From a virus, in IMG/VR virus record IMGVR_UViG_3300045988_081755: a stretch of 64,000 nt of DNA; one strand, 5' to 3'. The position numbers were made by a program, and so were the translations under genes. The notes under the pieces are model-generated. The model was not told the origin of the DNA, made no database searches, and saw nothing but the letters and a program-made list of their open reading frames with translations. Of this stretch, positions 15,902 through 49,390 are shown piece by piece; position 1 is the stretch's first letter; each line of letters begins with the position of its first letter.

Positions 15902-15909
15902 CAAAAATA
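15902..15909 (-). promoter_or_regulatory. -7 box TATTTTTG with an ATTCGAAT palindrome 8 nt upstream
   Basis: Minus strand reads ATTCGAATAGATTTATTATTTTTGTACC, in the gap before the 15852 start. Confidence 0.35.
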
Positions 15910-17083: not shown

Positions 17084-19084
17084 TTATTCTATATAACTGT
17101 AACCGTTTTCCTTCACGACAGTGAGAGTTGATACACCAGCTCGAATATTCATGACATGACTGATAACATATACAGGGTGACGAACTTCGTTCATTGATTC
17201 AAGTAGAAGAGCCAACCCCAACGGGTCTGTTCCCTCAAGAACTTCATCAATCATTAGGAAGTGAAGACCTCCCCATTCATTCGTACCATTAATCATCTCC
17301 TGAAATGCTTGTATCAGAGCCATTTCTATTCTTGCTCTTTCCCCACCGCTGAACGACCAAAATGATTTATATTCGCCCTCGCCATTGATGACTGTTACCG
17401 TAATTTCGGACTTGACTTGTCCTTTTGCATTCCGCTTGAAGCCATCAATTGAAAGCCGAAGTTCCGAACGTTGTTTCTGAAGAGACATATTTGCAAAGTT
17501 CTGAATGATTCTTAACTGTTCACAGGCAAGCGACATCTTGAACTCCTTAAATCTTAATCCCCATTGAACCATATCGGATACTTTCTTTTCGCACTCATCG
17601 TATTCCTTTTTAGCTTTCTGGAGTTTCTTCTCCGTCAGAGCAACGAGTCCTTCAAGTTCAGCTTCTTTGGTTTCCATTTCAGCCTGTTCAGCCTTTTCAA
17701 GCTGCTCAACTAACTGTTCGCTCTCATTGTTACAACGTAATTGAATCCCTTCTTGATGCTTTATATCCTCTTTGTAGGAAGATATCATTTGGTTACTTCG
17801 GGTTATCTCCCCACGAATTTTTGTTATCTCAGATTGAACATCACGAATGGCTCGAATTGTCCCCTGTTCTGAAACACGTATCTTCGTGAACTTCTCGTCG
17901 TACTTCTTCACTCGTTCCTCGAACGAATTCAATTCTTCCAACGCTGTTTTAGCAAGATTTTCCTGGGTTTCAGCTTCTTTCTTCTGTTTAGTTATCTCCT
18001 TCCGAGTGGTAGGCACATCAACAGTTTCATCAGATGTTACGAACTCCGTTCCACACTTTGGGCACTTTACAGTCCCTTTCAAAATAGCCGAAAGACGATT
18101 GGCTTCAGCAGTGTATTTTGAGGACAGTTCCTGAGCTGCTTTACGCTTCTTTCGTACTGCCTCTACCTTTGTATCGGTTGACGAGCGTTCTTTCGTTAAA
18201 GAGTCATATTGAGCCTTATAGTCAATTGCTTCTAATCCTTCCAACTTCTTAGAAGCTTCAGCAACTTTCTTCTGATTGTCTTTAATGCTCTGCTCCGCCA
18301 ACTTAATGGCTGTCTGAGAATTTTCAATCTTCTTTTCCGCTCCATCGTACTCTTGGATGACAGCGTCTATTCGCTCGTTTATACGCTCTATAAGCGATTG
18401 TCGTTCCTCCTCAAGATTACGTTCCCGCTCCGCAGCTAATTGTTCCGTATAGACGTTCAATTCACCCTCTATCGTGTGAACCTTTGCTTGGGCAGCTTGT
18501 TGCTTTTCCTGTAACGGCTTAATCTTCTCTTTTATGACATCATCCGCATCGTCTAACTGTTCAGCCTTAATGAAGCGGTTGATGAGCGAAAGTTTATCCG
18601 TATTAGAGGAGCTCACGAATGATTTGAAGTTCTCTTTATTCAAGATGTAAAAACTCTTCAGGTCTTCCGCTGAAATACCTATCCATTTCAGGATGTAAGC
18701 GTTTCCATCGTTTACGGTTGCAAACTGTACCGAACCCTCTTCTTCATTGAGCATAAGCTCCAACGTCGCTGAACCTTTCTGTCTGAGAGTCCGGTGTATG
18801 TTCAGCGTCTGTTTCCTTATCGGGCAGTAAATGTCAAGCCAAATGTCAGCTTCCTCCTCTCCCCACAAAATCAAGTCTCTGTCAAGAGTCTGTTTTTTCA
18901 AGGAGTTTGCCAGGATTGCATACGCAATCCCAGCCTCCATTGTGCTCTTCCCTGCTCCGTTTGTTTCCTTTGATTCAATCTCAGTCAAGTTCTTTCCCTT
19001 GATTAAGACAGGCTCGTTCAGGAATTTATGTTTCAACTCCTTGAACGATAAGAAATTCTTCAAACGTAAATAGGTCAGTTCCAT
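17084..19084 (-). CDS. sbcC: SbcC/Rad50-like SMC ATPase
   Basis: Walker A NGAGKST, a long coiled coil with a central CPKCG zinc hook, signature FSGGERA and Walker B LMIDEV. Confidence 0.85.
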   Translation of the reverse strand: MELTYLRLKNFLSFKELKHKFLNEPVLIKGKNLTEIESKETNGAGKSTMEAGIAYAILANSLKKQTLDRDLILWGEEEADIWLDIYCPIRKQTLNIHRTLRQKGSATLELMLNEEEGSVQFATVNDGNAYILKWIGISAEDLKSFYILNKENFKSFVSSSNTDKLSLINRFIKAEQLDDADDVIKEKIKPLQEKQQAAQAKVHTIEGELNVYTEQLAAERERNLEEERQSLIERINERIDAVIQEYDGAEKKIENSQTAIKLAEQSIKDNQKKVAEASKKLEGLEAIDYKAQYDSLTKERSSTDTKVEAVRKKRKAAQELSSKYTAEANRLSAILKGTVKCPKCGTEFVTSDETVDVPTTRKEITKQKKEAETQENLAKTALEELNSFEERVKKYDEKFTKIRVSEQGTIRAIRDVQSEITKIRGEITRSNQMISSYKEDIKHQEGIQLRCNNESEQLVEQLEKAEQAEMETKEAELEGLVALTEKKLQKAKKEYDECEKKVSDMVQWGLRFKEFKMSLACEQLRIIQNFANMSLQKQRSELRLSIDGFKRNAKGQVKSEITVTVINGEGEYKSFWSFSGGERARIEMALIQAFQEMINGTNEWGGLHFLMIDEVLEGTDPLGLALLLESMNEVRHPVYVISHVMNIRAGVSTLTVVKENGYSYIE

Positions 19085-19085: not shown

Positions 19086-20048
19086 CTAAATTGTTTGGGT
19101 GATTAATTCTTCAAGTTCTTCAGCAAGGTCGGGGTCATTCAAGATAACCTCTCTTGCCTTTTCAGCTCCCTGTGCAAGTGTCTTTCCTTTGTACTTAAAG
19201 AACGACCCTGCCTTCTCAATAACGTTTCGTTCCACGCCAACTGATAACAGCTCTGAAGCCTTATCAATTCCTTCCCCGAAACGAATGTCGAACTCAGCTT
19301 TCCGCAAGGGAGGCGCAACCTTATTCTTCTCCACCTTTACTTTGATGTGGTTAGCGACTTCTTCACCTCTGTCACCTACCACACCCGACTTTGCAATGTC
19401 AAGCACCTGTGATGAATAGAATCCAAGAGCCTTTCCTCCGGGAGTTGTCTTCGGTGAACCGTACACCACACCAATCTTGTCACGATACTGATTAATGAAT
19501 ATCATCAACTGATTGTTCTTCTTGATGTCACCAATTACTCCCGGAAGCCATGTAGCCATAAGACGAGCAAGCACACCCATCTTAGCATCACCCACATCAG
19601 CCTCAAGATAACATTTAGGGAACATCGCAGCCACGGAATCGAGAACGATAGCACCGATTGATTTTGACTTAATCGCTTCCCGAATAATTTCGAGACACTC
19701 CTCCGCAACTCCAGGCTGGCAAAGAATAAACATCTCGGGAGAAATATTCACCCCAATTGCTTCTACATAATCCATGTCAATAGCATTTTCACGGTCAATG
19801 TAGAGAACAGCCTTGCCCGTCTGTTCCTGAATGTTTCTACAGGCTGTTAAAGCCAACGTGGTCTTTCCTGAGGATTCATACCCACGCAGTTCAATAATAC
19901 GTCCGAGAGCGTATCCGCCACCGAGAGCCAAATCTAACGACAAGCTCCCTGACGACACGAACTCGACTCCTTGCTGATTGTTTCCCGCCACTACTTCTTT
20001 TCCGAACTTCTTTTGTAGCGAGTTCACCAAATCTTCTACTCCTGCCAT
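19086..20048 (-). CDS. recA: RecA recombinase (bacterial type)
   Basis: SLDLALGGGYALGRIIELRGYESSGKTTLAL, IVLDSVAAM, ARLMA, IFINQYRDKIGVVYGSP.TTPGGKAL. Confidence 0.92.
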   Translation of the reverse strand: MAGVEDLVNSLQKKFGKEVVAGNNQQGVEFVSSGSLSLDLALGGGYALGRIIELRGYESSGKTTLALTACRNIQEQTGKAVLYIDRENAIDMDYVEAIGVNISPEMFILCQPGVAEECLEIIREAIKSKSIGAIVLDSVAAMFPKCYLEADVGDAKMGVLARLMATWLPGVIGDIKKNNQLMIFINQYRDKIGVVYGSPKTTPGGKALGFYSSQVLDIAKSGVVGDRGEEVANHIKVKVEKNKVAPPLRKAEFDIRFGEGIDKASELLSVGVERNVIEKAGSFFKYKGKTLAQGAEKAREVILNDPDLAEELEELITQTI

Positions 20049-21140: not shown

Positions 21141-22586
21141 TTACTTTTTCTTCGCACGCATAGCACGGATACGGTCAATGGCACTTTGACCAGATGCGCT
21201 ACCAGCGTCGGCTGGAGCTTTTACTCCGGGAGCCGGAGTTTCATCTTCTGGTTCGGGGTCGTCACCAGCGTCACCGCTATCGTCAGGGTCTTCCCCACCG
21301 TTGTCATCACCCCCATCACCGTCGTCGGAACCATCCCATCCGGGAACGTGTTCAATGTCGTATCCGAGGTCTTCGTGTTTGACAGCCAGCTGATAAGCCT
21401 CTTCAAGTTCTTCACCCTCAAGCTCCAACTCTTCGTATCCTTCACCGTACTGGCGAATGAACTCTTCGTTGACAACTTTCAGTTTCTCTTCCGGAGTAGG
21501 TTCAGCAGGTTTCTTTTTCGCTGCGGCTTTCTTCGGTGCAGGAGCCGGAGCCTTGGCTGTCGGTGCTTTCTTAGAAGCAGGAGCTGCAGCAGGTTTCTTT
21601 TCCTCTTCACTCGGACCGAAAGGTAGGTCATCAGCCCCAGACGGCTTATCACCTGTCTTTTCTTCCACCATTTCCTGAAGTTGTTCAATCATGTCAAGGA
21701 AGTCATCCTGTGCGAAAATCTGATACTGGTTAGCATCGTCGAAACGCTTCAGACCGTCAAGAGCATAATCGAAGTCCCTCTTGGTATAACAGTCCACATA
21801 CAGTTTCTGGAGGCTGGGGAGACCGTCAAGTTCTTCCAATACCTTATCAGGCACAGCGTTCTTGTCGAAGTAGTCTTCCCAAGTCTGACCCATTTTCAAC
21901 GGCAACGATTTCAGCGTTTCCACTGTCTTGTTATTGTCGTCTTTTCCACGACTCCATTGAATAGGGAAGCCAGTTGATGGGTCACTGAACATATCCACGG
22001 CAGCGGTATCGTTCTGAGCACAAAGGTCAGCAGACTCTTTGTTCAGTGCTTCCATTTGTTTCGGTTTCAGGCTGTCTCGCCAAATCTTTCCTTCAATGAG
22101 CGCATAATACACGTATTCAAGCTGCGGACGAATTCCGGGAACCCATGTACCGTTCTTGCCACCCATACGATAACCCGTAATCGGGTTCAGGAAGCGAGCA
22201 CGCTCATCTTTGTCCTGAAGTTGTTCAGCCTGTTCGTAGACACGTTTGATATACTCCTCGATGATATCGTAGGGATACCCACCGTGAAGAGTAGCCAAGA
22301 AGATTTTCTTGTTAGCAATTTTCTTGCCGATTACGGTTCCGTCTTTGTCCTTATCATCAACTTCGCATTTCAGCATCGCTGTGAGCATAGGAACATACGG
22401 AGAGTCTCCTGGTTCATGAGCCGGAAGAACTCGTTTCACTGTGATTCCGTCTTTCTGTTTCCAGAATTGTGCATAATCACCTTCACCACCAAAATAGGTG
22501 TCGAACTGTTTGGTTTGCTGAACCGTCTCACTCACTTTGGAGAGAGACGCAGCTTTGTACTTTGAACGGTCGAATGCCATAATCAA
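21141..22586 (-). CDS. putative gp32-like ssDNA-binding protein with a long AKP-rich and poly-acidic tail
   Basis: The N-terminal half resembles T4 gp32 locally (ITVKRVLPAHEPGDSPYVP; GKIWRDSL). The tail has KKPAAAPASKKAPTAKAPAPAPKKAAAKKKP followed by DGSDDGDGGDDNGGEDPDDSGDAGDDPEPEDE. Confidence 0.4.
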   Translation of the reverse strand: MIMAFDRSKYKAASLSKVSETVQQTKQFDTYFGGEGDYAQFWKQKDGITVKRVLPAHEPGDSPYVPMLTAMLKCEVDDKDKDGTVIGKKIANKKIFLATLHGGYPYDIIEEYIKRVYEQAEQLQDKDERARFLNPITGYRMGGKNGTWVPGIRPQLEYVYYALIEGKIWRDSLKPKQMEALNKESADLCAQNDTAAVDMFSDPSTGFPIQWSRGKDDNNKTVETLKSLPLKMGQTWEDYFDKNAVPDKVLEELDGLPSLQKLYVDCYTKRDFDYALDGLKRFDDANQYQIFAQDDFLDMIEQLQEMVEEKTGDKPSGADDLPFGPSEEEKKPAAAPASKKAPTAKAPAPAPKKAAAKKKPAEPTPEEKLKVVNEEFIRQYGEGYEELELEGEELEEAYQLAVKHEDLGYDIEHVPGWDGSDDGDGGDDNGGEDPDDSGDAGDDPEPEDETPAPGVKAPADAGSASGQSAIDRIRAMRAKKK

Positions 22587-22966: not shown

Positions 22967-23018
22967 CAAAGGTAATGGATTGATTCGAATTATACAAGAG
23001 TTTCCCCGAAAATCTTCA
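22967..23018 (-). promoter_or_regulatory. Bacteroidota-type promoter with a conserved upstream element (site B)
   Basis: Minus strand reads TGAAGATTTTCGGGGAAACT-CTTG-N20-TACCTTTGTATC. The 16-nt and 18-nt blocks are identical to site A. Confidence 0.6.
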
Positions 23019-23585: not shown

Positions 23586-26500
23586 TTATAACGTTAAAGT
23601 AACGATATTCGTTTCGTAGTTCGCTCTCAGGACATTCACTTCTTTCCTCTTATCATAAGATAGTGAGCCATTCATAAGAATAAGGTTCGCTCTGACACAA
23701 GACAATAACGGCTCTAACTGTTCATATTCCTGTTGGAAGATAATTACTTCCAGGAACTCATAGTTTGACTCTAATATCAAGCGACACATCGTATCACCTT
23801 TCTTTGTCTTCTTCACCTCGAGTTCGGCAATAAATCCTGCAACAACGACATACCCATTGTTCGGCAGATATTCCGTATTGAGACAGGCTTCCATTCCTTG
23901 GTATTCATACATATCAGGGAACTCGTCTTTAAACCTGTCATAAAGAGCCTGATAGTCAAAGAACGCCAACCCTGACAGTTTCTTTTGAAGTAATCCCCAC
24001 CACCAAGCGTCATTCGCATGATAGTCCGCTCCTGTCAATACAGCGTCGTCTTCTTTGACGGCACTCTTAGTTGAGCCGAGGAAACTAACCAATAGGTCTA
24101 TTCGCTGAGCTGGAGCTTCAACCCCCTCAAGACGGTCAAACGCACCAGCCAATATCAGGTTTCTGATGATACGGCTGTTCACGGCTGAACCCTTCCATTT
24201 GTGTCGGGTGATGAAGTCGTCTAACGACCAATATTGACCGTTCTCTGTACGTTCCTTTAATATTTGGGTTGCAGCCTTTTCTGCGACCTGTTTGACCCCT
24301 GTAATTGACCAATACAAGGCTTTCTCCTCAAAGTTGATAATAACATCGGTCTCCGATATATTGATATCCACAGGTCGTACCGTACAGACGCCAGTCTTAT
24401 TGATTTCCGCAATATAGCGGGAATAGTCGGCTTCCTGAGCATACTTAAACGCAACCGACCAATATTCAATAGGATAGTGAACTTTTATCCACTGAGAGAT
24501 ATAACCTGTTATCGCATAGGCAGCAGCATGACTTCGGTTGAACAGGTACGTCGAAGCCTTATCAATAGCGTCCCACACCTTTTCGCTGTATTCCTGCGTG
24601 ACTCCGTAGTTATCACGATAATACGGGATAAACCGTTCTTTATATTGCTGGAGAGCCTCATACTTCTTCTTCACCATCGCTTTACGAACGTCATCGGCTT
24701 CTACCAACGACAATCCCCCAAGTTCACGGCAAAGTTGCATGATTTGTTCCTGATAGGCAAACACTCCATAAGTATTGTTCAGAATCTTGTCTGTACCTGT
24801 GAAATACTCAACTTTTCTCTGACCCTCTTTACGCAAGACATATTCGTTATGGAAGTTGTTCTCCATCGCTCCTGGGCGATATAGCGAGATAGCAGCGATA
24901 AGGTCTTCAATATTGTCAGGCTTCATCTGTCGACAATAACCTATCAGACCGGAGCTACCAAAGTGAAAGTTATCCTCGTTCCAACCATTCTTGAAATACC
25001 TGTACACCTCTGGGTCATCCAACGGTACACTGAAGATGTCTAAATCAACATTCTCATGCTCCTTTATCAAGCGTACCATGTCCTGGAACTTGTCAAACTG
25101 TTTCACCCCAAGAACGTCCTCTTTCAGGAACCCTGCTGCGTCCATTTCACCACCTTCCCACTCGGTTACATACTCACCCCCATTCTTACGAATAGGAACC
25201 CAATGAAACATATCATGTTCCTCCGGGAACACCATCATCGCACAGGCATGAATTGACTGTGCCTTAGGAGCTGGCATGATAAGCATAACCTCGTTAATCA
25301 GGTCAGAATGCTCAATAACAAAGTTCTTCACCCGTGAATGCGCACAGGCTATTTTGAACAGGTCTTCAGGCTTCCTGTCTTTCACGTCAAAGAGCTTCAT
25401 CATTTCGTTTGTTTCCTGGAAGTCTAACCCATATACACGAGCCATGTCCTTAATCGCTGCACGGAGCTGCAATGCGCTGTACGTTCCCACGGAACATACC
25501 TGTTTCCAGCCGTACCGTTCTTCCATGTACTTCTTCACACGAGGTCGGTCTTCACCTGGATAGTCGCAGTCAATATCAGGGAGTGATACTTTCACACGTC
25601 CTGCATTCAGGAAACGCTCAAAGAGTAGGTCATATTTCATCGGGTCTAACTTCGTAATCCCTAACAGGTAGGAAACAAGACAACCACCTGCGGAACCACG
25701 ACTGATACCCGTCATAATCCCATTACGATGGCACCAGTTGATAATATCCCAAGTAATTAGGAAGTAATCAATTGCCTCACCTAACTTGATAACGCCCACC
25801 TCTCGGTCTATTCGCTCCATAATAACATCTTCACCCCAATCCTCAATGAGGTCTGGGTGACGGTCAAGACCGTCGGCTATAAGAGCCCAAAAGAGGTCTT
25901 CATTTGTTTCATAAGTTTTCGCTTCCTGTTCCGTCATCTTATAGTGGGGCAAGTGTCGCTTCTGGACGTCGATTACAAAGGTAATCGCCTCAGCTATATT
26001 TTCAAGGAACTCCAACCCCTCTGTGAAACGGCTGTACACGTCCATGAACCCCTCATCGGTATCAGGGAACATCGCTGCTATTTCAAGGAACAGTTCATCG
26101 TTCGTCTTGAAATACTGATTGTCGCTATCGTAGGCAGTTGTCCCACCAATACTTTGAAGACGAGGTCTGATACAACTGTACTCCTCGTCAAGATACCACG
26201 CATCTACTGACGGAACAGCTAACAAGTTTCTATCAAGGAAAAACTTCTTCAGGTTCTTCAGATACCACTCATCACGGCTGTTCTCAACGTATTCGCACGG
26301 GTCAAGCTGATACACGGCTGCGTCTACTTTCAAGTCTTTCAACTTGTCATAGTCGGTTGTCTTCGGGTCAAGAAACAATATCAAGTCATCATTATTTCTC
26401 GTGATAGCATTGAAGTCATCGAGACCAATATACTTCGGATTATCGCAATTGATGAACTTGTTTATAGTAAGCAAATCTCGCCAACCCTTTTCATTCCGAG

Positions 26501-27086
26501 CATACACCTTGACAGTAAAGCGATAGTCACGAGGCTGGTCATACACCACGCACTCCATACCTATCACGCTCTTGATACCGTTCTTCTGACACTCGGCTTG
26601 AAACTTCAGCGCACCAGCCAACGAATTCTTTTCACAGATTCCCAACGTGTGAACTCCTAAGAACTTTGCCTTTTTACACCAGTCGGCATAAGTTCCTGTG
26701 CCGGACATCATTTCATATTGACCATGAACACCAAGGAACACCGGAGTAGGAATCTCTTGCTTTGCTGACCCAACATATTTCAGCCGTGTCAGTTTCACGT
26801 CGTTCTCTTTACCTTTGGCGAGCATATAGTAAACTCCTCCAAAACTGAACGCATAGAAATCGCAAGCCGTTTCAACTGTTTCCTCTCCTGAACCTTTTCG
26901 GTTCGGGTCGGCTGGGATTCCTACAAAGTTGAACCCGTCATCAAACAGCGCACCATCGTAGGCTGATTGATACAGTTCGAAGGTCTTTCCCCCTATCTCG
27001 ACCACATAGTCTGAAACAGGGGTAAAGTCCATAAAATTCTTCTTCAGATATTTCTTGAATTTATCCATTGATTTTCTCCTTAACAA
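23586..27086 (-). CDS. dnaE: DNA polymerase III alpha subunit (DnaE-type) with an N-terminal extension
   Basis: SRGSAGGCLVSYLLGITKLDP, the catalytic LPDIDCDY and FNRSHAAAYA are collinear with DnaE. The PHP HxH position reads GVHGQYE. The start may instead be Met7 at 27068. Confidence 0.9.
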   Translation of the reverse strand: MLRRKSMDKFKKYLKKNFMDFTPVSDYVVEIGGKTFELYQSAYDGALFDDGFNFVGIPADPNRKGSGEETVETACDFYAFSFGGVYYMLAKGKENDVKLTRLKYVGSAKQEIPTPVFLGVHGQYEMMSGTGTYADWCKKAKFLGVHTLGICEKNSLAGALKFQAECQKNGIKSVIGMECVVYDQPRDYRFTVKVYARNEKGWRDLLTINKFINCDNPKYIGLDDFNAITRNNDDLILFLDPKTTDYDKLKDLKVDAAVYQLDPCEYVENSRDEWYLKNLKKFFLDRNLLAVPSVDAWYLDEEYSCIRPRLQSIGGTTAYDSDNQYFKTNDELFLEIAAMFPDTDEGFMDVYSRFTEGLEFLENIAEAITFVIDVQKRHLPHYKMTEQEAKTYETNEDLFWALIADGLDRHPDLIEDWGEDVIMERIDREVGVIKLGEAIDYFLITWDIINWCHRNGIMTGISRGSAGGCLVSYLLGITKLDPMKYDLLFERFLNAGRVKVSLPDIDCDYPGEDRPRVKKYMEERYGWKQVCSVGTYSALQLRAAIKDMARVYGLDFQETNEMMKLFDVKDRKPEDLFKIACAHSRVKNFVIEHSDLINEVMLIMPAPKAQSIHACAMMVFPEEHDMFHWVPIRKNGGEYVTEWEGGEMDAAGFLKEDVLGVKQFDKFQDMVRLIKEHENVDLDIFSVPLDDPEVYRYFKNGWNEDNFHFGSSGLIGYCRQMKPDNIEDLIAAISLYRPGAMENNFHNEYVLRKEGQRKVEYFTGTDKILNNTYGVFAYQEQIMQLCRELGGLSLVEADDVRKAMVKKKYEALQQYKERFIPYYRDNYGVTQEYSEKVWDAIDKASTYLFNRSHAAAYAITGYISQWIKVHYPIEYWSVAFKYAQEADYSRYIAEINKTGVCTVRPVDINISETDVIINFEEKALYWSITGVKQVAEKAATQILKERTENGQYWSLDDFITRHKWKGSAVNSRIIRNLILAGAFDRLEGVEAPAQRIDLLVSFLGSTKSAVKEDDAVLTGADYHANDAWWWGLLQKKLSGLAFFDYQALYDRFKDEFPDMYEYQGMEACLNTEYLPNNGYVVVAGFIAELEVKKTKKGDTMCRLILESNYEFLEVIIFQQEYEQLEPLLSCVRANLILMNGSLSYDKRKEVNVLRANYETNIVTLTL

Positions 27087-27708
27087 GTTGAGTTATATCG
27101 TCACCATCCTTACAGCCCAAGCCGATAAAGTATTGAGCGAACTTCTCACTGATATGGTCATTCAATTCGTAGGAATCTGAGTGAAAGTCACAGAAGATAA
27201 TCTGAACTTCCTTTCCCGTCGTTTCCGCAACCTTAAACAGTGCTTCCGCTTCACAGTCAAACCGCAATGAACCGAATACGATATCACAGTCGTGAGCCTC
27301 GCTTTCAGACATCTTTGCCCAAAGATTAGCTACATAGTTTGCCGTCCAACGTGCCCACACATCTTCGCCAGCTAACTTCTTGAGGAATTCCCCAGTCCGC
27401 TGTAACAAGTTACGACCGTCCACCAATGTAGTTTCCAAAATATTCGGACCATCGGCTTCCGGCTTGAACGGAATAAAAACACTACTGCTCAACCGTTTCC
27501 AATCAGCATATTCCTTGGACGTACAGTCAATTCGCTTGTCCTCTCCTACTAAGATTTCCATCAACGTTCTACGAATGCCTTCACTGAAATCCCCCATAAT
27601 CATAGGACGCTCTTCACAGGCAGCACCAACCATCAGTGCTTCCGCATTGTAAGACTTACCACTACCGATAACCCCTACTAATCCATATATCTTTCCTTTA
27701 CGGTTCAT
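27061..27708 (-). CDS. P-loop deoxynucleoside monophosphate kinase-like protein
   Basis: P-loop GVIGSGKS. 215 aa. Located between the polymerase and the nucleotide-modification genes. Confidence 0.5.
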   Translation of the reverse strand: MNRKGKIYGLVGVIGSGKSYNAEALMVGAACEERPMIMGDFSEGIRRTLMEILVGEDKRIDCTSKEYADWKRLSSSVFIPFKPEADGPNILETTLVDGRNLLQRTGEFLKKLAGEDVWARWTANYVANLWAKMSESEAHDCDIVFGSLRFDCEAEALFKVAETTGKEVQIIFCDFHSDSYELNDHISEKFAQYFIGLGCKDGDDITQLVKEKING

Positions 27709-28237
27709 ATTGATTCATGAATTTTTGAATGCTCTTGAACAGCTTCCAATCCTCAGAATATCTGCTCAACAGTTCTTCACAGTTTTTAATACAAGTTAGG
27801 AGTTTCGCTGACGAGTTTCCAAGAGCCTGTTCATTCCGGCAGAATATCCATAGGTCAAGATAATCACACATCTTAAACAGTTTGTATTGGAGCTCCGTCA
27901 TCGTCTCTTTGATTGACTCATCAGAATAGGGGAGAAGATTGGGGTCACCATGACAGATTTCCCATTCAATAATATCCCATGCCGCAGCCGTGTTATCATT
28001 GAACTTCTTTACACAGACATTGAGGTCGCCTGTTACACTTTCAACATAGTCGTGGAGTAATACCTTGTCGAATACATTTATGTCGTAAGCAACGTCCTCT
28101 TCTGAGGCAAACCAACGGAATAGCATACCTACGACCAACCCGTGTTCCAGGAGGTTGTACCCCCGATGATGGGGGGTGTTGGGCAACCTCTGGATGTCTT
28201 TCATTCCTAACAGAATGTCAATTTTCTTGTAATTCAT
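27698..28237 (-). CDS. HD-domain phosphohydrolase, YfbR-like 5'-deoxynucleotidase
   Basis: LLEH (first His) and LLHDYVESVTGD match the YfbR-type HD..E..TGD motif. Confidence 0.65.
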   Translation of the reverse strand: MNYKKIDILLGMKDIQRLPNTPHHRGYNLLEHGLVVGMLFRWFASEEDVAYDINVFDKVLLHDYVESVTGDLNVCVKKFNDNTAAAWDIIEWEICHGDPNLLPYSDESIKETMTELQYKLFKMCDYLDLWIFCRNEQALGNSSAKLLTCIKNCEELLSRYSEDWKLFKSIQKFMNQYEP

Positions 28238-28269
28238 ACGAAATCGTCTTTAATTTGATACTTTATTTC

Positions 28270-29376
28270 TCACCCGATAAACAGTTCGTTCAGTAACGGG
28301 TTTCTGAACTCAACAGGTTGTTTCGTCCAATAACGATAAATAACCTTTGCCCAGTCAAGGAACATTTCATCGGTAAACTCATTGAGCATTTCCTTCAGTT
28401 CCTTTTCGTCGAAGTTTCCACAACGGCACAGTTCCTCGTATCGTGATAACTGGTCGATAAGCCTGTCGAACCCATCCAATGATGTAAACGTAGTCTGGTA
28501 GGAAAAGTTCACTCCGGAAGGATACGAATTTACGTCTCTTTTAGCGATTTCTTCAGCCAACGGAATGAAGCCCTTATAGACATGAAGATTGTCTGCCTTG
28601 TGGTAGTATTTGCCGACAGGCACGCCCACTATCGCTGCGACGTACTCCTGCATCAATGTAAAGTTGAACACGTTCACCGCACTGAACCCCCAAATCAGGT
28701 CATTCGAGCGCATATCAACGTAACAGTTCATCTTCCCACCCACAATCATAAAATGAATTGACCGTGTGCAAGGTGTGTCCTTTGTAAGAAGAATTGGAGC
28801 CTGTTCACCGTCTTCCAAGTTTCCATTGAAATTGTCAGAGATAGGGTCGTGAATTGTGATTACCGCCTCACGAGTGTCAATATCCTGTTTGAACTTTTCA
28901 ATCACGAAACGCAACTGGTCAGTCACGTTCTGATACGTGGTAGGCTTCCGCAATTTAGTTTGACGACCGTTATCGTCTGCCTTGCCATTCTTGTACTGGC
29001 GTGGAAGTAACTGTCCGGACAATGTTACCATCGACTCAAAATTGTCCCCGTAACGACGTATTCTGGGTCCATATCCAGCTCTCATGAACTTACCATCATC
29101 TGAGAAGTTTACAAGGTTCTTCACATAGCTGGCAGGCATCTCCAAACTGTTATCCCCACGAGCGAGCCACAGGCTTTCAATCCAACCAAGTGTCTTATTC
29201 CATTTGCGCTCCGGCACACGAACATAGCGGTCAGTCGGGTTGGTGATTTCAACCAATACTGCTCCGGGAAACTCCCGACACTGATACCCTCTTCGGGTGA
29301 CATCAACTCCGCTCTCCATGAGTCCTTTACACAGCATTACGAGAGCACTACTCAAATTTTCTGCTTGAAAATACAT
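28270..29376 (-). CDS. thymidylate synthase-family pyrimidine hydroxymethylase (candidate dUMP hydroxymethylase)
   Basis: Collinear with ThyA: TRRGYQCREF, IESLWLARGD, nucleophile DTPCTRSIHF, and MRSNDLIWGFSAVNVFNF with Asn at the dUMP-specifying position. 368 aa, with insertions and a C-terminal extension. Confidence 0.7.
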   Translation of the reverse strand: MYFQAENLSSALVMLCKGLMESGVDVTRRGYQCREFPGAVLVEITNPTDRYVRVPERKWNKTLGWIESLWLARGDNSLEMPASYVKNLVNFSDDGKFMRAGYGPRIRRYGDNFESMVTLSGQLLPRQYKNGKADDNGRQTKLRKPTTYQNVTDQLRFVIEKFKQDIDTREAVITIHDPISDNFNGNLEDGEQAPILLTKDTPCTRSIHFMIVGGKMNCYVDMRSNDLIWGFSAVNVFNFTLMQEYVAAIVGVPVGKYYHKADNLHVYKGFIPLAEEIAKRDVNSYPSGVNFSYQTTFTSLDGFDRLIDQLSRYEELCRCGNFDEKELKEMLNEFTDEMFLDWAKVIYRYWTKQPVEFRNPLLNELFIG

Positions 29377-29390
29377 AAGTTTCTTTTTAA

Positions 29391-30422
29391 TTATTCAACA
29401 ATAAATTTTCCTGGTTCGGGGAGAACCGCTTTCCATTTAGGAGGAAACACGAACTCAATCTTCTTTGGGCTCTTTTCGTAGGTGTGTTTGATACGCTCGT
29501 TTCTTCCTTTGTTGAAAGACGCACCTAATCCCTTGGCAAACTTACTTGTTTCACAGAAACAGTTCTGTAGATTTGTCAGTGTCGGCACAGGCTCCCAAGG
29601 CAACGGATTCCACTTCATACCTGTTTCCCTGCAAAAGTTACCCATCAATTCTTCGAAATTTTCGTGAACCCATTTGATTACTCCCACATAATCATAACGC
29701 TTCCCCGACGCTCCGTCAAATGTCCATCCAATCCCCTTTAAAGAACCTGGACCAGTGATTACAAAATCGTTCTCACTGAAGTTGTACAACGGAGAATAAT
29801 TCAGGTCGATACAATATTGCTGAGCCGTGAAGTCCCCATATATCTTCATCTTACGGAATACCCAATACAAGTCCTCAAAGGTCTTCGCCTCTAAGAAGTC
29901 ATACAAGTGTCCGTTCTGAAAGATTTCATCTTCGAAGATACGAAAGTGAGCACGATGCTTGCTCATCCCTGTAATATGTTTATATTCGGGATATTGATAG
30001 AAGAAGCAATTCACGATGTAGGCATTACCATATATCGTGTCTCCGCCATCAACAACCTTGTCAAGAAACTTCGCAATATTCTCCAAGCCTGTTTCATAGG
30101 TGATATCCCCAAATTCCTTCTCGAGTAAATCCCACGTCTCATTCTTATTGAAGTGCTTGAAAAGCAATATGCGAAAGAACATATCTTCGGGTTCGTACTG
30201 TTTACCATTGTAGATTACACGGCTCAACAGGTATTGACTCACACGGTCAAGACAGCGGTACACTGACGTGAATTTATAATTCTGCAATATAGGGTCTTGA
30301 GTCCACGGTTGCGGTTCTCCATTATATTTCTTCCACCAAATATTTTGCCTTTCACAAATCCAATAAAGATAATGAAAAAAGTTATCATTTGGCTTCGGAA
30401 TAAATTTTTCTTTCTGTTTCAT
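29391..30422 (-). CDS. candidate alpha-glutamyl/putrescinyl thymine pyrophosphorylase-family (aGPT-Pplase) DNA base hypermodification enzyme
   Basis: The N-terminal ERQNIWWKKYNGEPQPWTQDPILQNYKFTSVYRCLDRVSQYL matches the W-T-DPIL..(Y/F)(R/K)F(T/C)N.YR..DRV(S/T) signature I recall for this family. The gene neighbourhood also fits. Confidence 0.6.
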   Translation of the reverse strand: MKQKEKFIPKPNDNFFHYLYWICERQNIWWKKYNGEPQPWTQDPILQNYKFTSVYRCLDRVSQYLLSRVIYNGKQYEPEDMFFRILLFKHFNKNETWDLLEKEFGDITYETGLENIAKFLDKVVDGGDTIYGNAYIVNCFFYQYPEYKHITGMSKHRAHFRIFEDEIFQNGHLYDFLEAKTFEDLYWVFRKMKIYGDFTAQQYCIDLNYSPLYNFSENDFVITGPGSLKGIGWTFDGASGKRYDYVGVIKWVHENFEELMGNFCRETGMKWNPLPWEPVPTLTNLQNCFCETSKFAKGLGASFNKGRNERIKHTYEKSPKKIEFVFPPKWKAVLPEPGKFIVE

Positions 30423-31024
30423 ACCAAAATTTTTCTTGAATACATACCATTGCGTTCCCCTGATACAGCCTGCCCAATTTTTCTTCTATGCTCCTCAGAA
30501 AAAGGTTTTCCTCTGCGCCCATCTCCTAATTTCTTCTGAACTTCTGGAGTCAATAAAGCAATCTTCGAGGCTTCACGTTGCTTTTTAACGAATAATTCGT
30601 TTTCACGCAATTTATTCATAAGCATAGATTTCTCTTCCCGAAATTTATCGGTGCAACGTTTCTTTGCAGACTCTGACATTTTGCGCCTGGACTCTTCAGA
30701 AAATATCCTCCCAAATTGCCCTTCGCCTCCCAATGTCATATTGTACCCGTTCCGAAATGTGCTGAACTTCTTGATAAGCCGAATTTCAACATAATCGAGT
30801 TTGGCTTTCAAAGCCTCTTTCGTAGGAGCGGAAACTGTCAGGACTTCCTCAACGACAAAGTTCTCCTCACCATACTTTCGTATGGCTCGGTGGAACTTAT
30901 AATTACTCCCTGAGTGAGCCTCCTGAATATGACGTTCCCATCGTTTTTCAATCAAACGAATTGTTTGACCAAAATACAGTTTCCCAGTCAAAAGACAAGT
31001 CACGCAATAAATGTATCCTTTCAT
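30419..31024 (-). CDS. GIY-YIG homing endonuclease
   Basis: GYIYCVTCLLTGKLYFGQT, RWERH, YGEENF, GYNMTLGGEG and a NUMOD3-like GKPFSEEHRRKIG. It has 4-nt overlaps with both neighbours. Confidence 0.85.
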   Translation of the reverse strand: MKGYIYCVTCLLTGKLYFGQTIRLIEKRWERHIQEAHSGSNYKFHRAIRKYGEENFVVEEVLTVSAPTKEALKAKLDYVEIRLIKKFSTFRNGYNMTLGGEGQFGRIFSEESRRKMSESAKKRCTDKFREEKSMLMNKLRENELFVKKQREASKIALLTPEVQKKLGDGRRGKPFSEEHRRKIGQAVSGERNGMYSRKILV

Positions 31025-31758
31025 TTACCTTTCTCGAATGTTTCAAAGGAGTTTCGCTCTATATAGTCAGAGTTCTCACAGAACTTGACAAAATCATCAC
31101 ACAAATCCTGAAGTTCGAAAAAGTTCAAGATGTGAACACCCAAGTCCCATACGGGAGCGTCATACGGCTGGTCGTGTAACACTACATTGCCGCCAGCTTC
31201 ATTCACCTCTTTTCCTTCTCTTACAGCCTTTTCGTAATCGTGCATAAAGGTACGGTGCTTCCGCCACATGCAATCCCCCTTAGGAGGCTCGCCAGACCTG
31301 TATGCTATACGAGCACAATATTCATCCCATTGGTCATCTCGGTAATCATACCGAACGTGAAGAATGTTAGTGAATTCACTCTCACCACACAAATCCAAGG
31401 GACGTAGTCGCCATGATACGGTTGTTCCCGCACCGTCAATCAATACTCCATGTCCTGCTTTTGAGGTTTCCTTCAGGAAGTGAGACAGTCCCTCAGCCTT
31501 GCACAGTCGCGACGTCATACTGTCGTAACCTTGCCAACGCTTGATACCACCGTTCTCGTAGAACTTCCCTACGAACACCATGTTAAAGTCTTCAGAATAC
31601 ACTCCGACTTCCTTTTCCTTTCCGTCAAGAGTTGTAAACTTATACGGACGGAGTTTCATACCTAATGATTCCAGGAACTCCAGGAAGAGATAAACCCTTG
31701 TGGATTTACCGCTCCCTGAAATTCCCTTCACCAATACTATTGATTCCCCGTCTACCAT
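31021..31758 (-). CDS. P-loop kinase, candidate 5-hydroxymethyl-dU DNA kinase (5-HMUDK)
   Basis: P-loop GISGSGKST. 245 aa. Separated from the aGPT-Pplase candidate only by a homing endonuclease gene. The assignment rests on context. Confidence 0.45.
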   Translation of the reverse strand: MVDGESIVLVKGISGSGKSTRVYLFLEFLESLGMKLRPYKFTTLDGKEKEVGVYSEDFNMVFVGKFYENGGIKRWQGYDSMTSRLCKAEGLSHFLKETSKAGHGVLIDGAGTTVSWRLRPLDLCGESEFTNILHVRYDYRDDQWDEYCARIAYRSGEPPKGDCMWRKHRTFMHDYEKAVREGKEVNEAGGNVVLHDQPYDAPVWDLGVHILNFFELQDLCDDFVKFCENSDYIERNSFETFEKGK

Positions 31759-32477
31759 TACTTCTTCTTTGGAGTTTTCTTTGCGGGAGCAGCTTTGGTT
31801 TCCTCAGCCAGTTCAAGAGCTGTAACACGTTTCTTGATAGGCTTGTCGTCACCGAACTTCACCATACACTTCTCTTTTCCATCACCGGATTTGTACAGAC
31901 GTGTGATTTCACCAACAGCGTCTTCGCCTTTCAGTTTCACCTGAGAGCCAACTTTCATTCCCGGAATTTCTTCTGACTCTTCCAAGTTCTGACGTTTGGT
32001 TTCACGAGGAGTCTTGTCAGCTTTCGCTGCCTTTTCCTTCTTCATACCTTTGTCAGACTTCGAAGGAGTCTTGCGGTTTTTCTGACGTTCTTCGTACTCA
32101 GCCTCAGCCTCTACCAAACGAGCTTCCTCTTCCGGAGTCAGTTGTTCTTCCGACTGATAGGTTGAGTTACGTTTGTTCTGACGCTGCATAGCAGCTTCGG
32201 GTGAACCGTCTTCAGGGTCAGGGTCTTCGGCAGTTTCTTCTTTCGCAGCTTTCTTAGGAGCAGCCTTTTTATCAGCTTTCTTTTCAGCGACTTTCTTGGC
32301 TGGAGCTTTCTTAGGAGCTTCCTCTTCTTGAGCGGTTTCGCCACCTAACTTGTCAAGGAACTCTTGAGCTACCTTAACTTCCAATTCACTTGAATTCTCA
32401 TCGTTGATGATTTCTTCGAGCTTTTCAGCGTCGAACTTTCTGTACTTCATCCGAAGTGCTAATGCATTACTTGCCAT
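31758..32477 (-). CDS. Lys/Glu/Ala-rich, largely low-complexity protein with a C-terminal SH3/KOW-like segment (histone H1-like repeats)
   Basis: APKKAPAKKVAEKKADKKAAPKKAAKEE, then a small globular-looking GMKVGSQVKLKGEDAVGEITRLY..KCMVKF, then AAPAKKTPKKK. Confidence 0.55.
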   Translation of the reverse strand: MASNALALRMKYRKFDAEKLEEIINDENSSELEVKVAQEFLDKLGGETAQEEEAPKKAPAKKVAEKKADKKAAPKKAAKEETAEDPDPEDGSPEAAMQRQNKRNSTYQSEEQLTPEEEARLVEAEAEYEERQKNRKTPSKSDKGMKKEKAAKADKTPRETKRQNLEESEEIPGMKVGSQVKLKGEDAVGEITRLYKSGDGKEKCMVKFGDDKPIKKRVTALELAEETKAAPAKKTPKKK

Positions 32478-32541
32478 AATCGTTTTTTACTTTTAATTAT
32501 TAAAATTGTTTTTCTGTGATGTTTTATCACTTATCTCGCTA

Positions 32542-32592
32542 CAAATATAACTGGAAATTTTCGAAAAGGTTTGATTTTCTCCCCGAAAAATC
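32542..32592 (-). promoter_or_regulatory. promoter with a conserved upstream element (site C) heading the modification/polymerase operon
   Basis: Minus strand reads CGATTTTTCGGGGAGAAAATCAAACC-TTTTCGAAAA-N8-TATATTTGTAGC. Confidence 0.5.
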
Positions 32593-32596
32593 GAAA

Positions 32597-33046
32597 TTAT
32601 TTTTTGCCGGAATGACCAAATCCACCCGCACCTCTCTCAGTGTCAGTGAGTTCTTCGACTGAAGAAACTTCGACAACTTCCTCGGCTTTTGCATACGGAG
32701 CAAAGACGATTTGGGCAATTCTGTCACCATTCTCGATTGTTTGTGGTTCTGTCGACAGGTTAATCAACGGAACACCTACTTCCCCACGATAGTCAGCATC
32801 GATTGTTCCGGGAGCATTGATTACGGTCAAACCTTGTTTCACGGCACAACCGCTGCGAGGTCTAACTTGTCCTTCGTGTCCGGGTTCGATTTCCATGTAC
32901 AGCCCAGTCGGAATAATTTTTCTTTCCATAGGGTTCAACACGATTGAGCCTTCCGGAAGATAAGCTCTTAAATCCATTCCTGAACTGTCAGGAGTTTTGT
33001 ACTCGGGAAGCGCATTCCCACTCTTGTTTACGATTTTCAGTTTCAT
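32597..33046 (-). CDS. dut: trimeric dUTPase
   Basis: SGMDLRA, PRSG, GTIDADYRGEV and the C-terminal ERGAGGFGHSG motifs. Confidence 0.92.
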   Translation of the reverse strand: MKLKIVNKSGNALPEYKTPDSSGMDLRAYLPEGSIVLNPMERKIIPTGLYMEIEPGHEGQVRPRSGCAVKQGLTVINAPGTIDADYRGEVGVPLINLSTEPQTIENGDRIAQIVFAPYAKAEEVVEVSSVEELTDTERGAGGFGHSGKK

Positions 33047-36254: not shown

Positions 36255-38354
36255 TTATACTGCATCAACTTTAATTAGAACGGTGCTCTCTCGTAGCTTG
36301 TTAATTGCCATGAAAGATGAAGAAACTGTATCATCGTGCCCACTGATACTCTCAAGAGTTCCCTTATCGCTTCGAAAAGCAACACTATTGAACTCCCCAA
36401 ACATCTGGTCTACTTTTTGCTTCGTATCCGGATGATACGGGCACTTGATAGCTCCTCTCTCATATAACGCTGCGAGCGACGCCCATCCTGTTCTCAAATC
36501 CTTTTTATTCCCGGAAGTAGTCGTGAATGGCGTGATGTTCTTTATTCCCATTTGAACGCACATATCAGCCAAAATACTTTGAAAGCCGTTGTTCTCAACT
36601 ACTATCTCATTTGGCTTAAATACACGGTTCAACAAATCTATCTTTGATATCTGTTCATTATGGGATAAGCCTTTCTCACGGTAAATGTGCAACAGGTAGT
36701 AATTTCCTTGGATATCCTTTCCCCAAACTGTATAGCAGGTATAGTCGGCTCCCACGTTACCCGACACGGCAAAGTCGCAACCAATCACCACCCGTACCAA
36801 CTTGATAGGAAAAGACTCAATATTATCTACCAACCTGATGTTTTCCATCCCGATTGTACTCCTCTTTAATATCTCCCAAGGGAATATTGTACTGTCGTCG
36901 GAAATAGGTACGACAAGGTACTCACGAGAGAATACCATCGTCCCCAGAGACAGTTTTTCCTCCATTAGCTTATTCCATGTGAAGCGGTCAGGAGCTAACA
37001 GACGTCCGTCCGGAAATATTGCAGGGTACTCAAAGACCTTGAACTTCGGGTCTTTCTTTAATTCGGCATATAAGTCCTCCTGCTGATACGGTGTACCATC
37101 AACGAGATTATACCCATACGGCTCAACAATAGGAGTGATAGCACCTTTAAACAGGTCTCTCAGCTTCTCACGCTGTTCCAGCGAATAGATACTACTTTCG
37201 TCAGGCAAGTCATCACTGACTGCTGCCCCAACGTGAAGACCACGAATAAACCCGTCCTTTCCACGTAGGTGTAATTTCGTACCATTTTCACATTCTATAC
37301 TCGTCGCTGCCAGTGAAGCCTTCCCAGTAGGGTTCAGTTTCGCTGCCAACGCTTCATTCACACGAATTTCCTCTACCACCTTGTCGATATGCTGTTTACC
37401 CAGCTTCTCCGTATTGGTGATAATACAGGTTTCCTGACGATTCTTATTATCTGGAATGTCAGGTCTCATAAACGTTGGTCGTCTATAACTATACAGCCTC
37501 CACAACGGAAACGCCATACAGAACTCATAGGAGTTGTGAACAACGGTTCCATCCTCTAATTGAAACAGGTGGTCACCATCGCACATAAATCCATAATAAG
37601 ACTCTTCCCCTATCGGTGAAACTGTTATATTACTCCTTTCTAAGACAGGCTTATCAAATGAGAAAACTCTGTACCCCTGAAATCTTCTTTGTTTCTTTTC
37701 AGGATACTTCAGGAATTGACCCATTTCAATCTCAACATATTTCTTTCGCTTCGTATCCCACAGGCACATCACGTGTGCTCGGTTCACCGCATATGGCATA
37801 CCGTTTTCTTGCTCAACCCTGAACATCTGTGCCCGACCTATATGCCGAGTCAGAACTTTTCGAGGTGTAAAATCAATTCCCATGACTTCCATTCCGGGAT
37901 AAATGTCTTCAACGTTCTTCACGGAAAAGTCCGCCATTAAGATACGAGTCCCTCTGGCAAAACACTTTCCGTGAGAACGAGCAGCAAGATAAGCACTGTT
38001 CGGATATAGTTGAACCATGTTCCCCCATTCAAGATTTCTCCAACCTTGACGAAAATTAGGAAGCATAGTCGTTTTGAAATAGTTGTACGACTGAACCTTT
38101 AAGGTCTCATCCATTGATTCCTCTAATTGGTCAATGTAGTTAAGCCGTTCAGTCTCAAGAGTAGTATTTAGGGAAAGAACATTATTTGTCTGAATGAAGA
38201 TTTCTGATAGGAGTGCGTCCACATCACCCCCATAGCCGTTCATCAACTGATTTACAGCCACAGGTGGTAAAGACTCTATAACGTTGAACGCAGTAGAAAA
38301 GACGGTGTCCAACTGTTTATATGATAGCTTCAAATCTTCATTAAAATGTATCAT
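36255..38354 (-). CDS. terL: terminase large subunit interrupted by a mini-intein
   Basis: The exteins total ~555 aa. Walker A reads LAARSHGK|S across the intein. The C-terminal nuclease region carries VVIGCDFAVSG. Confidence 0.78.
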   Translation of the reverse strand: MIHFNEDLKLSYKQLDTVFSTAFNVIESLPPVAVNQLMNGYGGDVDALLSEIFIQTNNVLSLNTTLETERLNYIDQLEESMDETLKVQSYNYFKTTMLPNFRQGWRNLEWGNMVQLYPNSAYLAARSHGKCFARGTRILMADFSVKNVEDIYPGMEVMGIDFTPRKVLTRHIGRAQMFRVEQENGMPYAVNRAHVMCLWDTKRKKYVEIEMGQFLKYPEKKQRRFQGYRVFSFDKPVLERSNITVSPIGEESYYGFMCDGDHLFQLEDGTVVHNSYEFCMAFPLWRLYSYRRPTFMRPDIPDNKNRQETCIITNTEKLGKQHIDKVVEEIRVNEALAAKLNPTGKASLAATSIECENGTKLHLRGKDGFIRGLHVGAAVSDDLPDESSIYSLEQREKLRDLFKGAITPIVEPYGYNLVDGTPYQQEDLYAELKKDPKFKVFEYPAIFPDGRLLAPDRFTWNKLMEEKLSLGTMVFSREYLVVPISDDSTIFPWEILKRSTIGMENIRLVDNIESFPIKLVRVVIGCDFAVSGNVGADYTCYTVWGKDIQGNYYLLHIYREKGLSHNEQISKIDLLNRVFKPNEIVVENNGFQSILADMCVQMGIKNITPFTTTSGNKKDLRTGWASLAALYERGAIKCPYHPDTKQKVDQMFGEFNSVAFRSDKGTLESISGHDDTVSSSFMAINKLRESTVLIKVDAV
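37533..37964 (-). mobile_element. 144-aa mini-intein (no endonuclease domain) in the terminase P-loop
   Basis: Starts with CFARGTRILMADF (block A). Block B-like AVNRAHVMCL. Block F/G YYGFMCDGDHLFQLEDGTVVHN, followed by +1 Ser. Codon positions were checked against the DNA. Confidence 0.8.
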
Positions 38355-39448: not shown

Positions 39449-39456
39449 CAAATTTA
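39449..39456 (-). promoter_or_regulatory. -7 box TAAATTTG very close to the next start codon
   Basis: Minus strand reads GTAAATTTGTAGCACA-ATG. This implies a leaderless or very short-leader mRNA, if the box is functional. Confidence 0.3.
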
Positions 39457-49382: not shown

Positions 49383-49390
49383 CAAATATA
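49383..49390 (-). promoter_or_regulatory. -7 box TATATTTG
   Basis: Minus strand reads TACTATATTTGTAGAAAA, 17 nt before the ATG at 49365. Confidence 0.3.

Follow-up and report, generated by a model that had tools for sequence, protein, structure and literature searches.

The 64,000-nucleotide stretch of viral DNA considered here (IMG/VR record IMGVR_UViG_3300045988_081755; hereafter the window) contains a gene string at 23586..33046 of the minus strand, and this locus raises the question of how a phage could hypermodify its thymidine without a recognisable enzyme for attaching or tailoring the final group. In a first-pass annotation of the sequence, eight of the genes were read as an operon following the logic established for thymidine hypermodification, and all eight were found in place, although a ninth gene, encoding a 201-aa homing endonuclease between the kinase gene and the gene for a 343-aa protein (30419..31024), had been omitted. 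In the order of transcription, the string comprises dUTPase, a Lys-rich protein, an HMUD2 kinase, the homing endonuclease, the PF18723 protein (343 aa), a thymidylate synthase (TS)-family enzyme, an HD nucleotidase, a deoxynucleoside monophosphate (dNMP) kinase and the DNA polymerase III (Pol III) alpha subunit. The established logic holds for the pre-replicative steps, which would supply 5-hydroxymethyldeoxyuridine (5-hmdU), and for the DNA kinase, but not for the step of the clade-2 transferase (PF18724), which is absent. This absence points to a transferase-less variant rather than to the established pathway; as judged from sequence, the operon belongs to the 5-hmdU type of thymidine modification, and the interpretation given in the first-pass annotation is partly supported.

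The post-replicative step with the closest link to a characterised enzyme is DNA phosphorylation. The family search placed the 245-aa P-loop kinase (31021..31758, minus strand) in PF18747 (HMUD2; E-value, 2e-23; 83.4 bits against a cutoff of 25) and not in an unrelated family, the match covering only the N-terminal part of the profile (positions 3-176 of 298). In tblastn, the kinase matched gp243 of Salmonella phage ViI (YP_004327565), itself a PF18747 protein (561 bits), with the Walker A residues G12/S14/G17/K18 and several Arg/Asp residues invariant between the two proteins and the lid residues also in common. As ViI gp243 is a proven 5-hmdU DNA kinase (PMC8989533, Table 1), the presence of such an enzyme in the string, as suggested in the first-pass annotation, is well founded, and the 245-aa protein is predicted to phosphorylate 5-hmdU in DNA to 5-phosphomethyldeoxyuridine (5-PmdU). 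The product of 5-hmdU DNA kinases is this monophosphate and not a pyrophosphate (PMC8989533), so that the earlier proposal of pyrophosphate as the displaced group is not supported.

The 343-aa protein (29391..30422, minus strand), which had been labelled aGPT-Pplase-like, matches PF18723 with 252 bits (E-value, 9e-75) over profile positions 4-273 of 281. PF18723 is the Pfam family HMUDK_hel ("5-hmdU DNA kinase helical domain"), formerly aGPT-Pplase clade 1, and PF18724 ("ADDT"/AADT) corresponds to clade 2; the old and new names were tied together through annotated phage proteins. The two clades were reportedly first defined by Iyer et al. in 2013. The label was therefore right at the superfamily level, and the family is tied to thymidine-modifying phages, but the protein belongs to clade 1 and not to the proven clade-2 transferases. 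Other members of PF18723 are Maynard_81, an orthologue of ViI gp160, a protein of phage Montesquieu annotated as "aGPT-Pplase clade 1", and the C-terminal half of SP10 gp186, the N-terminal half of which is an HMUD1 kinase. The proven serine:DNA transferase of ViI, gp247, is a PF18724 protein, and the clade-2 AADTs with demonstrated transfer activity are M6 gp51, ViI gp247, PaMx11 gp46 and PhiW-14 gp109. A PF18723 homologue was also found in Psychrobacter.

Comparison of 21 PF18723 sequences sharing 21-54 % identity, including those of the SP10 gp186 C-terminal half and the ViI gp160 type, revealed 15 invariant positions. Among them are R25, R56, D59, R60, G224/226/230, C290, E291 and K294, which are retained in SP10, ViI-type and actinophage members; C290, E291 and K294 lie in the last long helix, and a G-P-G...G helix-hairpin-helix (HhH)-like loop is likewise invariant. 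The invariant residues of the AADT family, E282-T283...C287...K290-K291 in ViI numbering, correspond to E243/T244/C247 of the PaMx11 enzyme, where E243/T244 are metal ligands and C247 is catalytic (PMC11472151). In an hhalign comparison of the two families (E-value, 0.13), C290 falls onto the catalytic Cys and K294 onto AADT K291. The AlphaFold2 model of the 343-aa protein (pLDDT 92.5) is all-helical and resembles HhH glycosylases. No PDB entry was matched significantly by Foldseek; PaMx11 gp46 (8z2m) gave the best TM-score (0.41/0.47), amid HhH glycosylases. In the BFVD structure search, SP10 gp186 ranked on top (E-value, 3e-12; TMq 0.75), followed by PF18723 proteins including PhiW-14 C9DG43, and the AADT-domain proteins formed the next fold family (prob 0.85-0.99). 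The Pfam search gave no PF18724 match to the protein at E <= 0.1, no link was obtained when PF18723 was aligned with the single sequence of gp247, and phmmer against the PDB returned no relevant match. From residues and modelled fold, we infer that the 343-aa protein is distantly related to the AADT family without belonging to it and keeps the nucleophilic Cys, and it is predicted to act as an enzyme on 5-hmdU or 5-PmdU in DNA.

The substrate of these two proteins would be supplied by the remaining genes of the string. The 368-aa TS homologue (28270..29376, minus strand; PF00303, 2e-15; phrog_5131, 1e-61) scores below every ThyA equivalog cutoff, with 63.8 bits against 174.55 for TIGR03283 and 40.4 against 108.35 for TIGR03284, and the canonical ThyA reading was rejected on these scores. 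Its best PDB relative is the MilA hydroxymethylase (3.5e-19, compared with 8e-9 for the best TS), and its nearest phage relatives include annotated SPO1-like deoxyuridylate hydroxymethyltransferases and the SP10 dUMP hydroxymethylase. HMMER alignment places Cys203 with the TS nucleophile and Asn235 with the uracil-specific Asn of TS, which is Asp in MilA; a dCMP/CMP hydroxymethylase was accordingly rejected as well, the residue at the base-specificity position being Asn and not Asp. Cys203, R223-S-N-D226, N235, H265 and Y267 are all common to the homologue and the annotated SP10 enzyme. The best reading of the 368-aa protein, on these sequence features, is a dUMP 5-hydroxymethylase.

Upstream, the trimeric dUTPase (149 aa; 32597..33046, minus strand) was identified by PF00692 (1e-27) and by an equivalog-level Dut score (NF001862, 174.3 bits against a cutoff of 103). 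The HD gene (27698..28237, minus strand), which directly follows the TS gene in all related loci, encodes a 179-aa protein of the YfbR-like 5'-deoxynucleotidase family (PF12917, 1e-13; 51.6 bits against 25.9 for the Pfam domain; NCBIfam NF003009, 29.9 bits, under the cutoff of 122) and is predicted to deplete dTMP or other competing dNMPs. The 215-aa dNMP-kinase-like P-loop protein (27061..27708, minus strand) matched only phrog_139 (6e-9), with no match in Pfam or NCBIfam; its position is conserved in relatives, and it is predicted to convert 5-hm-dUMP to 5-hm-dUDP. The DnaE-type Pol III alpha (~1160 aa; 23586..27086, minus strand), with PHP, DNA_pol3_alpha, finger and HHH_6 domains, would be the phage replicase that incorporates 5-hm-dUTP.

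Pfam scans covered all minus-strand open reading frames (ORFs) of 90 aa or more in the window together with the remaining ~45 kb of a close relative, IMGVR_UViG_3300045988_073438 (109,370 bp), whose operon proteins are 94-99 % identical. Among the matches listed, neither PF18724 nor any pyridoxal phosphate (PLP), radical S-adenosylmethionine (SAM), flavoenzyme/FAD, GNAT, amidoligase or glycosyltransferase family was found in the window or in the rest of the relative's ~109-kb genome. A custom AADT hidden Markov model (HMM), which detected the family in four other relatives (L039, L153, L155 and L156), did not find it in the window lineage. The earlier observation that the window lacks PLP, radical-SAM, acetyltransferase and oxidoreductase genes is thus correct and extends to the relative's genome, and for the suggestion that the modification is finished by genes outside the window, Pfam shows no tailoring gene there. 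In the remainder of that genome, Pfam recognised only HU, NUDIX, portal, lysin, protease, Rep3 and DUF2400 proteins, of which the DUF2400/TIGR02757 protein (250 aa; L077:10915-11667 in the relative, outside the window) is the sole extra candidate for a nucleic-acid enzyme. As the only family proven to attach the final group is missing, the sequence does not reveal the end product. Two window proteins without a family were considered as hidden enzymes and set aside: the 481-aa protein looks like a single-stranded DNA-binding protein with a long acidic tail, and in the 492-aa protein no cofactor motif was seen.

The gene order dUTPase - Lys-rich protein - kinase - PF18723 - TS - HD - dNMP kinase is constant in ~40 related contigs, down to ~55 % identity, and the operon is under purifying selection, with dN/dS values of 0.03-0.14 (kinase 0.03, PF18723 0.06 and TS homologue 0.14, against a relative of 89 % identity; Lys-rich protein 0.10). 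The conserved order and low dN/dS indicate that the arrangement is no chance juxtaposition. The homing endonuclease is missing from many close relatives, in which the end of the kinase gene overlaps the start of the PF18723 gene and the two are translationally coupled.

Between these frame genes, more distant relatives carry cassettes. A GATase, a PF18724 AADT, an amidoligase-like protein and a GNAT lie between kinase and PF18723 in L039, L153, L155 and L156; in L135 and L164 the cassette consists of a 397-aa protein with weak similarity to Pplase3 and two unknown proteins; and a choline-kinase-like protein, a nucleotidyltransferase and a TAGT glycosyltransferase are found in the kinase-less relatives L136, L146-150 and L157 (cassette positions: L039:6207-10966; L135:3660-9014; L136:7568-12372). 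In L152 (L152:153-1835), matches to an N6/N4 DNA methylase and to the kinase occur in one stop-to-stop frame. The cassette-bearing relatives share with the window the frame dUTPase - HMUD2 - ... - PF18723 - TS - HD - dNMP kinase, adjoining Pol III alpha, and differ from it in having tailoring/transfer sets between the frame genes, whereas the slot between kinase and PF18723 in the window holds the homing endonuclease only. The window lineage is the empty-cassette form of a modular locus, and across the related loci PF18723 always lies beside the hydroxymethylase, regardless of which chemistry follows. A pairing of TS and aGPT-Pplase1 reported for pelagiphages (PMC9599517) agrees with this constancy.

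Among characterised systems, Bacillus phage SP10 is the closest known layout. In both, the kinase and PF18723 form one unit, fused as gp186 in SP10 and encoded by overlapping genes in the homing-endonuclease-free relatives of the window; a TS-like hydroxymethylase (gp188 in SP10) adjoins, no PF18724 is detectable, and the 343-aa model has its best structural match in gp186. AADT HMMs gave no match at E <= 1 in 97 % of the SP10 genome, where PF18723 occurs in gp186 only, in agreement with the entry "none detected" given for SP10 by Lee 2018. In SP10 DNA, alpha-glutamyl-T and T both arise from 5-hmdU after replication (PMC8989533). SP10, a phage whose hypermodified base is proven, thus sets a precedent for a kinase-PF18723 unit that is not accompanied by AADT. 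The kinase of the window is, however, a separate polypeptide of the HMUD2 and not the HMUD1 type, gp185 and the second kinase of SP10 have no counterpart, and the host phylum (Bacteroidota), the DnaE replicase and an identity of only ~21 % further set the two apart.

In ViI, which has the kinases gp67/gp243, the serine:DNA transferase gp247, the PLP decarboxylase gp226 and the PF18723 protein gp160, the pre-replicative stage is likewise based on a dUMP hydroxymethylase, and the 245-aa and 343-aa proteins resemble gp243 (PF18747) and gp160 (~27 % identity), respectively; the window phage differs in having no gp247-type AADT, PLP enzyme or second kinase, and its genes are clustered, whereas those of ViI are scattered. 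The Pseudomonas M6/PaMx11 clusters combine 5-HMUDK and AADT with radical SAM/PLP or FAD/acetyltransferase enzymes: phosphorylation of 5-hmdU in DNA precedes processing at the C5-methylene, and the module adjoins hydroxymethylase and polymerase genes as it does here, but the AADT (8z2m) and all tailoring enzymes are missing from the window. HTVC023P-type pelagiphages and the actinophages LuckyBarnes and Montesquieu also have PF18723 beside a TS-like gene, sometimes with a 5'-deoxynucleotidase; they differ in the lack of an HMUD2 kinase or in added glycosyltransferases or AADT, and represent unrelated genome types.

Taken together, these comparisons allow a pathway to be proposed. The dUTPase would make dUMP and remove dUTP, the TS homologue would hydroxymethylate dUMP to 5-hm-dUMP, and the phage dNMP kinase and a host NDP kinase would convert this to 5-hm-dUTP, while the HD nucleotidase would drain dTMP and the phage Pol III alpha would build 5-hmdU DNA. 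The HMUD2 kinase would then turn 5-hmdU in DNA into 5-PmdU, after which PF18723 would flip the base out, Cys290 would attack C6, the phosphate would be expelled and a nucleophile would add to the exocyclic methylene. Because the genome encodes neither a transferase of a proven family nor tailoring enzymes, modification would end with a single-step adduct formed from some abundant nucleophile of the cell, comparable to the glutamyl-T of SP10. The DNA kinase step draws on homology to a proven enzyme, the hydroxymethylase, nucleotide kinase, nucleotidase and incorporation steps on family membership and residues; the family assignments lie above curated cutoffs, that of the dNMP kinase being a PHROG match alone. 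We put it at nearly an even chance that the kinase and PF18723 constitute a self-sufficient post-replicative system, with PF18723 as a second class of Cys-dependent base enzyme that either attaches a new group directly to the methyl carbon of thymine or rebuilds T. The more specific proposal, in which the Cys mediates an SP10-like replacement of the phosphate by a cellular nucleophile in one step, is put forward tentatively, with somewhat less confidence.

Several observations weigh against this proposal. The metal-ligand pair E-T of the AADTs is replaced by Q286-N287 at the aligned PF18723 positions, and the statistics for the PF18723-AADT link are weak (hhalign E 0.13, Foldseek E > 0.03, TM 0.41-0.47). 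No activity assigned to any PF18723 protein was found in the literature searched, and gp160 is missing from the enzymes with a listed function in the 2021 study (PMC8989533). PF18723 also occurs beside glycosyltransferases without an HMUD kinase (L136, L146-150, LuckyBarnes), so that phosphate displacement is not its universal role; these kinase-less, glycosyltransferase-type clusters are the chief difficulty both for this proposal and for a restoration of T. PF18723 also usually co-occurs with AADT, a pairing that is not obviously explained if PF18723 is a second transferase. The transferase of SP10 could instead be gp185 (896 aa), called radical SAM by Lee 2018. In the window itself, the 481-aa and 492-aa proteins have no family, and in one batch of window scans the five weakest Pfam families lie outside the matches listed.

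Biochemical work on SP10 and PhiW-14 dating back to ~1980 describes an activity that rebuilds T from 5-hmdU in DNA, and PF18723 might be the enzyme behind it. In that case it would turn phosphorylated 5-hmdU into canonical T by Cys attack, loss of phosphate and reduction of the methylene; virion DNA would contain ordinary T, with 5-hmdU/5-PmdU as transient states of replicating DNA. The virion DNA of SP10, PhiW-14, M6 and ViI is free of 5-hmdU, every 5-hmdU becoming either the hypermodified base or T, and the study names no T-forming enzyme (PMC8989533); PF18723 is present in SP10, PhiW-14 and ViI and, according to PMC9599517, in M6-like phages. Such a two-fate model accounts for the pairing of PF18723 with AADT, and the chemistry is feasible, as M6 gp51 with borohydride gives thymidine from 5-PmdU. 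The all-helical model, however, shows no evident reductant- or folate-binding domain, the outcome would be plain T at a high cost, yet many lineages without the transferase keep the pair under strong purifying selection, and PF18723 is found without the kinase in glycosyltransferase-type clusters. We regard this T-restoring variant as unlikely. It is a little less likely again that the pathway stops at 5-hmdU or 5-PmdU, with PF18723 as a non-catalytic or base-flipping partner of the kinase and with packaged 5-hmdU that is partly a phosphomethyl ester. A partnership of this kind is implied by the Pfam name and supported by the fusion of both parts in SP10 gp186 and by the translational coupling of the two genes; phosphorylation alone protects DNA from a restriction enzyme (PMC8989533), and the Lys-rich protein could, speculatively, offset the added negative charge. 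Conversely, the SP10 kinase domain is fully active without its PF18723 half, 5-PmdU is treated as an intermediate, and the four phages studied package no 5-hmdU (PMC8989533), while the family-wide invariant Cys-Glu-x-x-Lys points to catalysis and PF18723 occurs in clusters without a kinase.

Two further readings were weighed. Transfer could be carried out in trans by the host or by the HhH-glycosylase-like DUF2400/TIGR02757 gene of the relative, or the latter could excise unmodified bases. The gene is conserved in >60 related contigs, and its model (pLDDT 93) matches HhH-GPD glycosylases, the closest fold being the queuosine-5'-phosphate glycosylase Qng1/DUF2419, with a PLDTHV Asp motif and invariant Lys/Arg residues. 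It has, on the other hand, no detectable relation to AADT or PF18723 (8z2m is absent among the 50 structural matches listed), lies ~50 kb from the operon among early genes, and has homologues of ~45 % identity that are common in Bacteroidales chromosomes without a link to 5-hmdU. As a hidden transferase it was rejected for its Qng1/HhH-glycosylase-like fold and the missing link to either family, and action in trans is kept as a highly improbable rival. An ordinary nucleotide metabolism, with a divergent TS, kinases for free nucleotides and unmodified DNA, would agree with the labels "thymidylate synthase" and "guanylate kinase" that homologues bear in PHROGs and many GenBank records. It is hardly to be expected, with marginally less chance still: the TS homologue falls under all ThyA cutoffs and is closest to the SPO1-like, SP10 and MilA hydroxymethylases, the kinase and PF18723 families are tied to thymidine-modifying phages and include ViI gp243 and SP10 gp186 as proven DNA-base kinases, and relatives place AADT, GNAT and amidotransferase genes in the same gene frame.

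Hypermodified thymidine protects the DNA of phages against restriction enzymes as well as other nucleases, and hypermodification is a source of DNA-labelling enzymes. All known pathways proceed via the clade-2 transferase, and the clade-1 partner is present in the classic model phages examined. In the phage group described here, the kinase and the clade-1 protein alone have been retained, with strong purifying selection acting on both, which provides a naturally reduced setting where the activity of clade 1 could be followed free of interference. Modified thymine may, moreover, be present in a common class of Bacteroidota phages, and gut virome studies by sequencing, restriction or nanopore would then be biased.

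The source of the window is a ~109-kb phage of gut Bacteroidota represented by metagenomes only. Exact copies of the 343-aa protein occur on 101.5-109.5-kb contigs from several ENA assemblies, and the map of IMGVR_UViG_3300045988_073438 closes on itself, which indicates a circularly permuted genome of ~109 kb. No near-identical cultured phage emerged when the region was compared by Megablast with 50,697 phage records, and an exact 31-mer had no match in IMG/VR. Exact copies of one window protein were detected in >1000 assembly blocks, the phage group being widespread in gut metagenomes.

All genes of the window lie on the minus strand across 64 kb. The 120-nt gap between the dUTPase and Lys-rich genes contains a Bacteroidota-type -7 promoter box, TATATTTG (32542..32549, minus strand), 65 nt upstream of the Lys-rich gene, and this box is the probable start of a transcription unit reaching ~23000, as the next -7 box on the coding strand is at 22974..22967. 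The motif TAnnTTTG is found 27 times on the coding strand, with 10 of the copies in the 4.6 % of the window that is non-coding, an ~8-fold intergenic enrichment. This enrichment makes both the promoter-headed description and the Bacteroidota host proposed in the first-pass annotation reasonable. Viral BACON and Listeria-Bacteroides repeat domains in the window (Pfam) provide further evidence for the host, and the nearest Pol III alpha sequences are those of Tenacibaculum, Cellulophaga and Chryseobacterium phages (36-40 % identity). The motif, often directly followed by TA, marks most intergenic gaps of the window; besides 22974..22967, intergenic sites on the coding strand are located at 49390..49383, 39456..39449, 15909..15902 and 5284..5277.

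The first gene behind the promoter box encodes the Lys/Ala/Glu-rich protein (239 aa; 31758..32477, minus strand), which has AKKxA repeats and a small conserved C-terminal domain and belongs to no Pfam, PHROG or NCBIfam family; a DNA-binding role for it is a guess. Low-complexity segments rich in AKKxA/PAP, again without a family, occur both in this protein and in the 481-aa protein at 21141..22586 (minus strand). The GIY-YIG/NUMOD3 homing endonuclease (201 aa; minus strand), whose gene overlaps each neighbour by 4 nt, is a mobile insert outside the pathway. Free-standing homing endonucleases of the same type are encoded on the minus strand at 30419..31024, 12366..12875 and 4387..5250, as well as in L003, L004 and L007, and their presence and insertion point vary among near-identical genomes, for instance after Pol III alpha or before the dUTPase. 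The large terminase gene (36255..38354, minus strand) contains an intein, with a Hom_end-associated Hint and a Terminase_6C nuclease domain in one 699-aa ORF.

Beyond the left end of the window, a downstream region (L041:12429-17996) encodes a ferritin-like protein, a sigma-70 family factor and a Tad2-like/Sequestin protein, the family name of which suggests an anti-Thoeris role. Upstream of the right end, a 433-aa NUDIX protein is encoded beside the major capsid gene (L043:368-1669); with weak matches to MutT and pyrimidine-dNTP-diphosphatase, it could be a dTTPase-type pool sanitiser. The TS and 5-hydroxymethyluracil-kinase domains are newly validated in Escherichia coli defence systems by the DefensePredictor study, where a dNMP kinase also appears in the key of Fig. 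3 (PMC13092281), so these families are not restricted to phages. For a phage of ~109 kb, the replication and repair set is large, with GroEL, a B12-type class II ribonucleotide reductase, RecA, SbcC, an Mre11-type phosphoesterase, an NAD-dependent ligase, UvrD and an SNF2 helicase (positions in the window, minus strand: 2691..4307, 5291..7639, 19086..20048 and 17084..19084).

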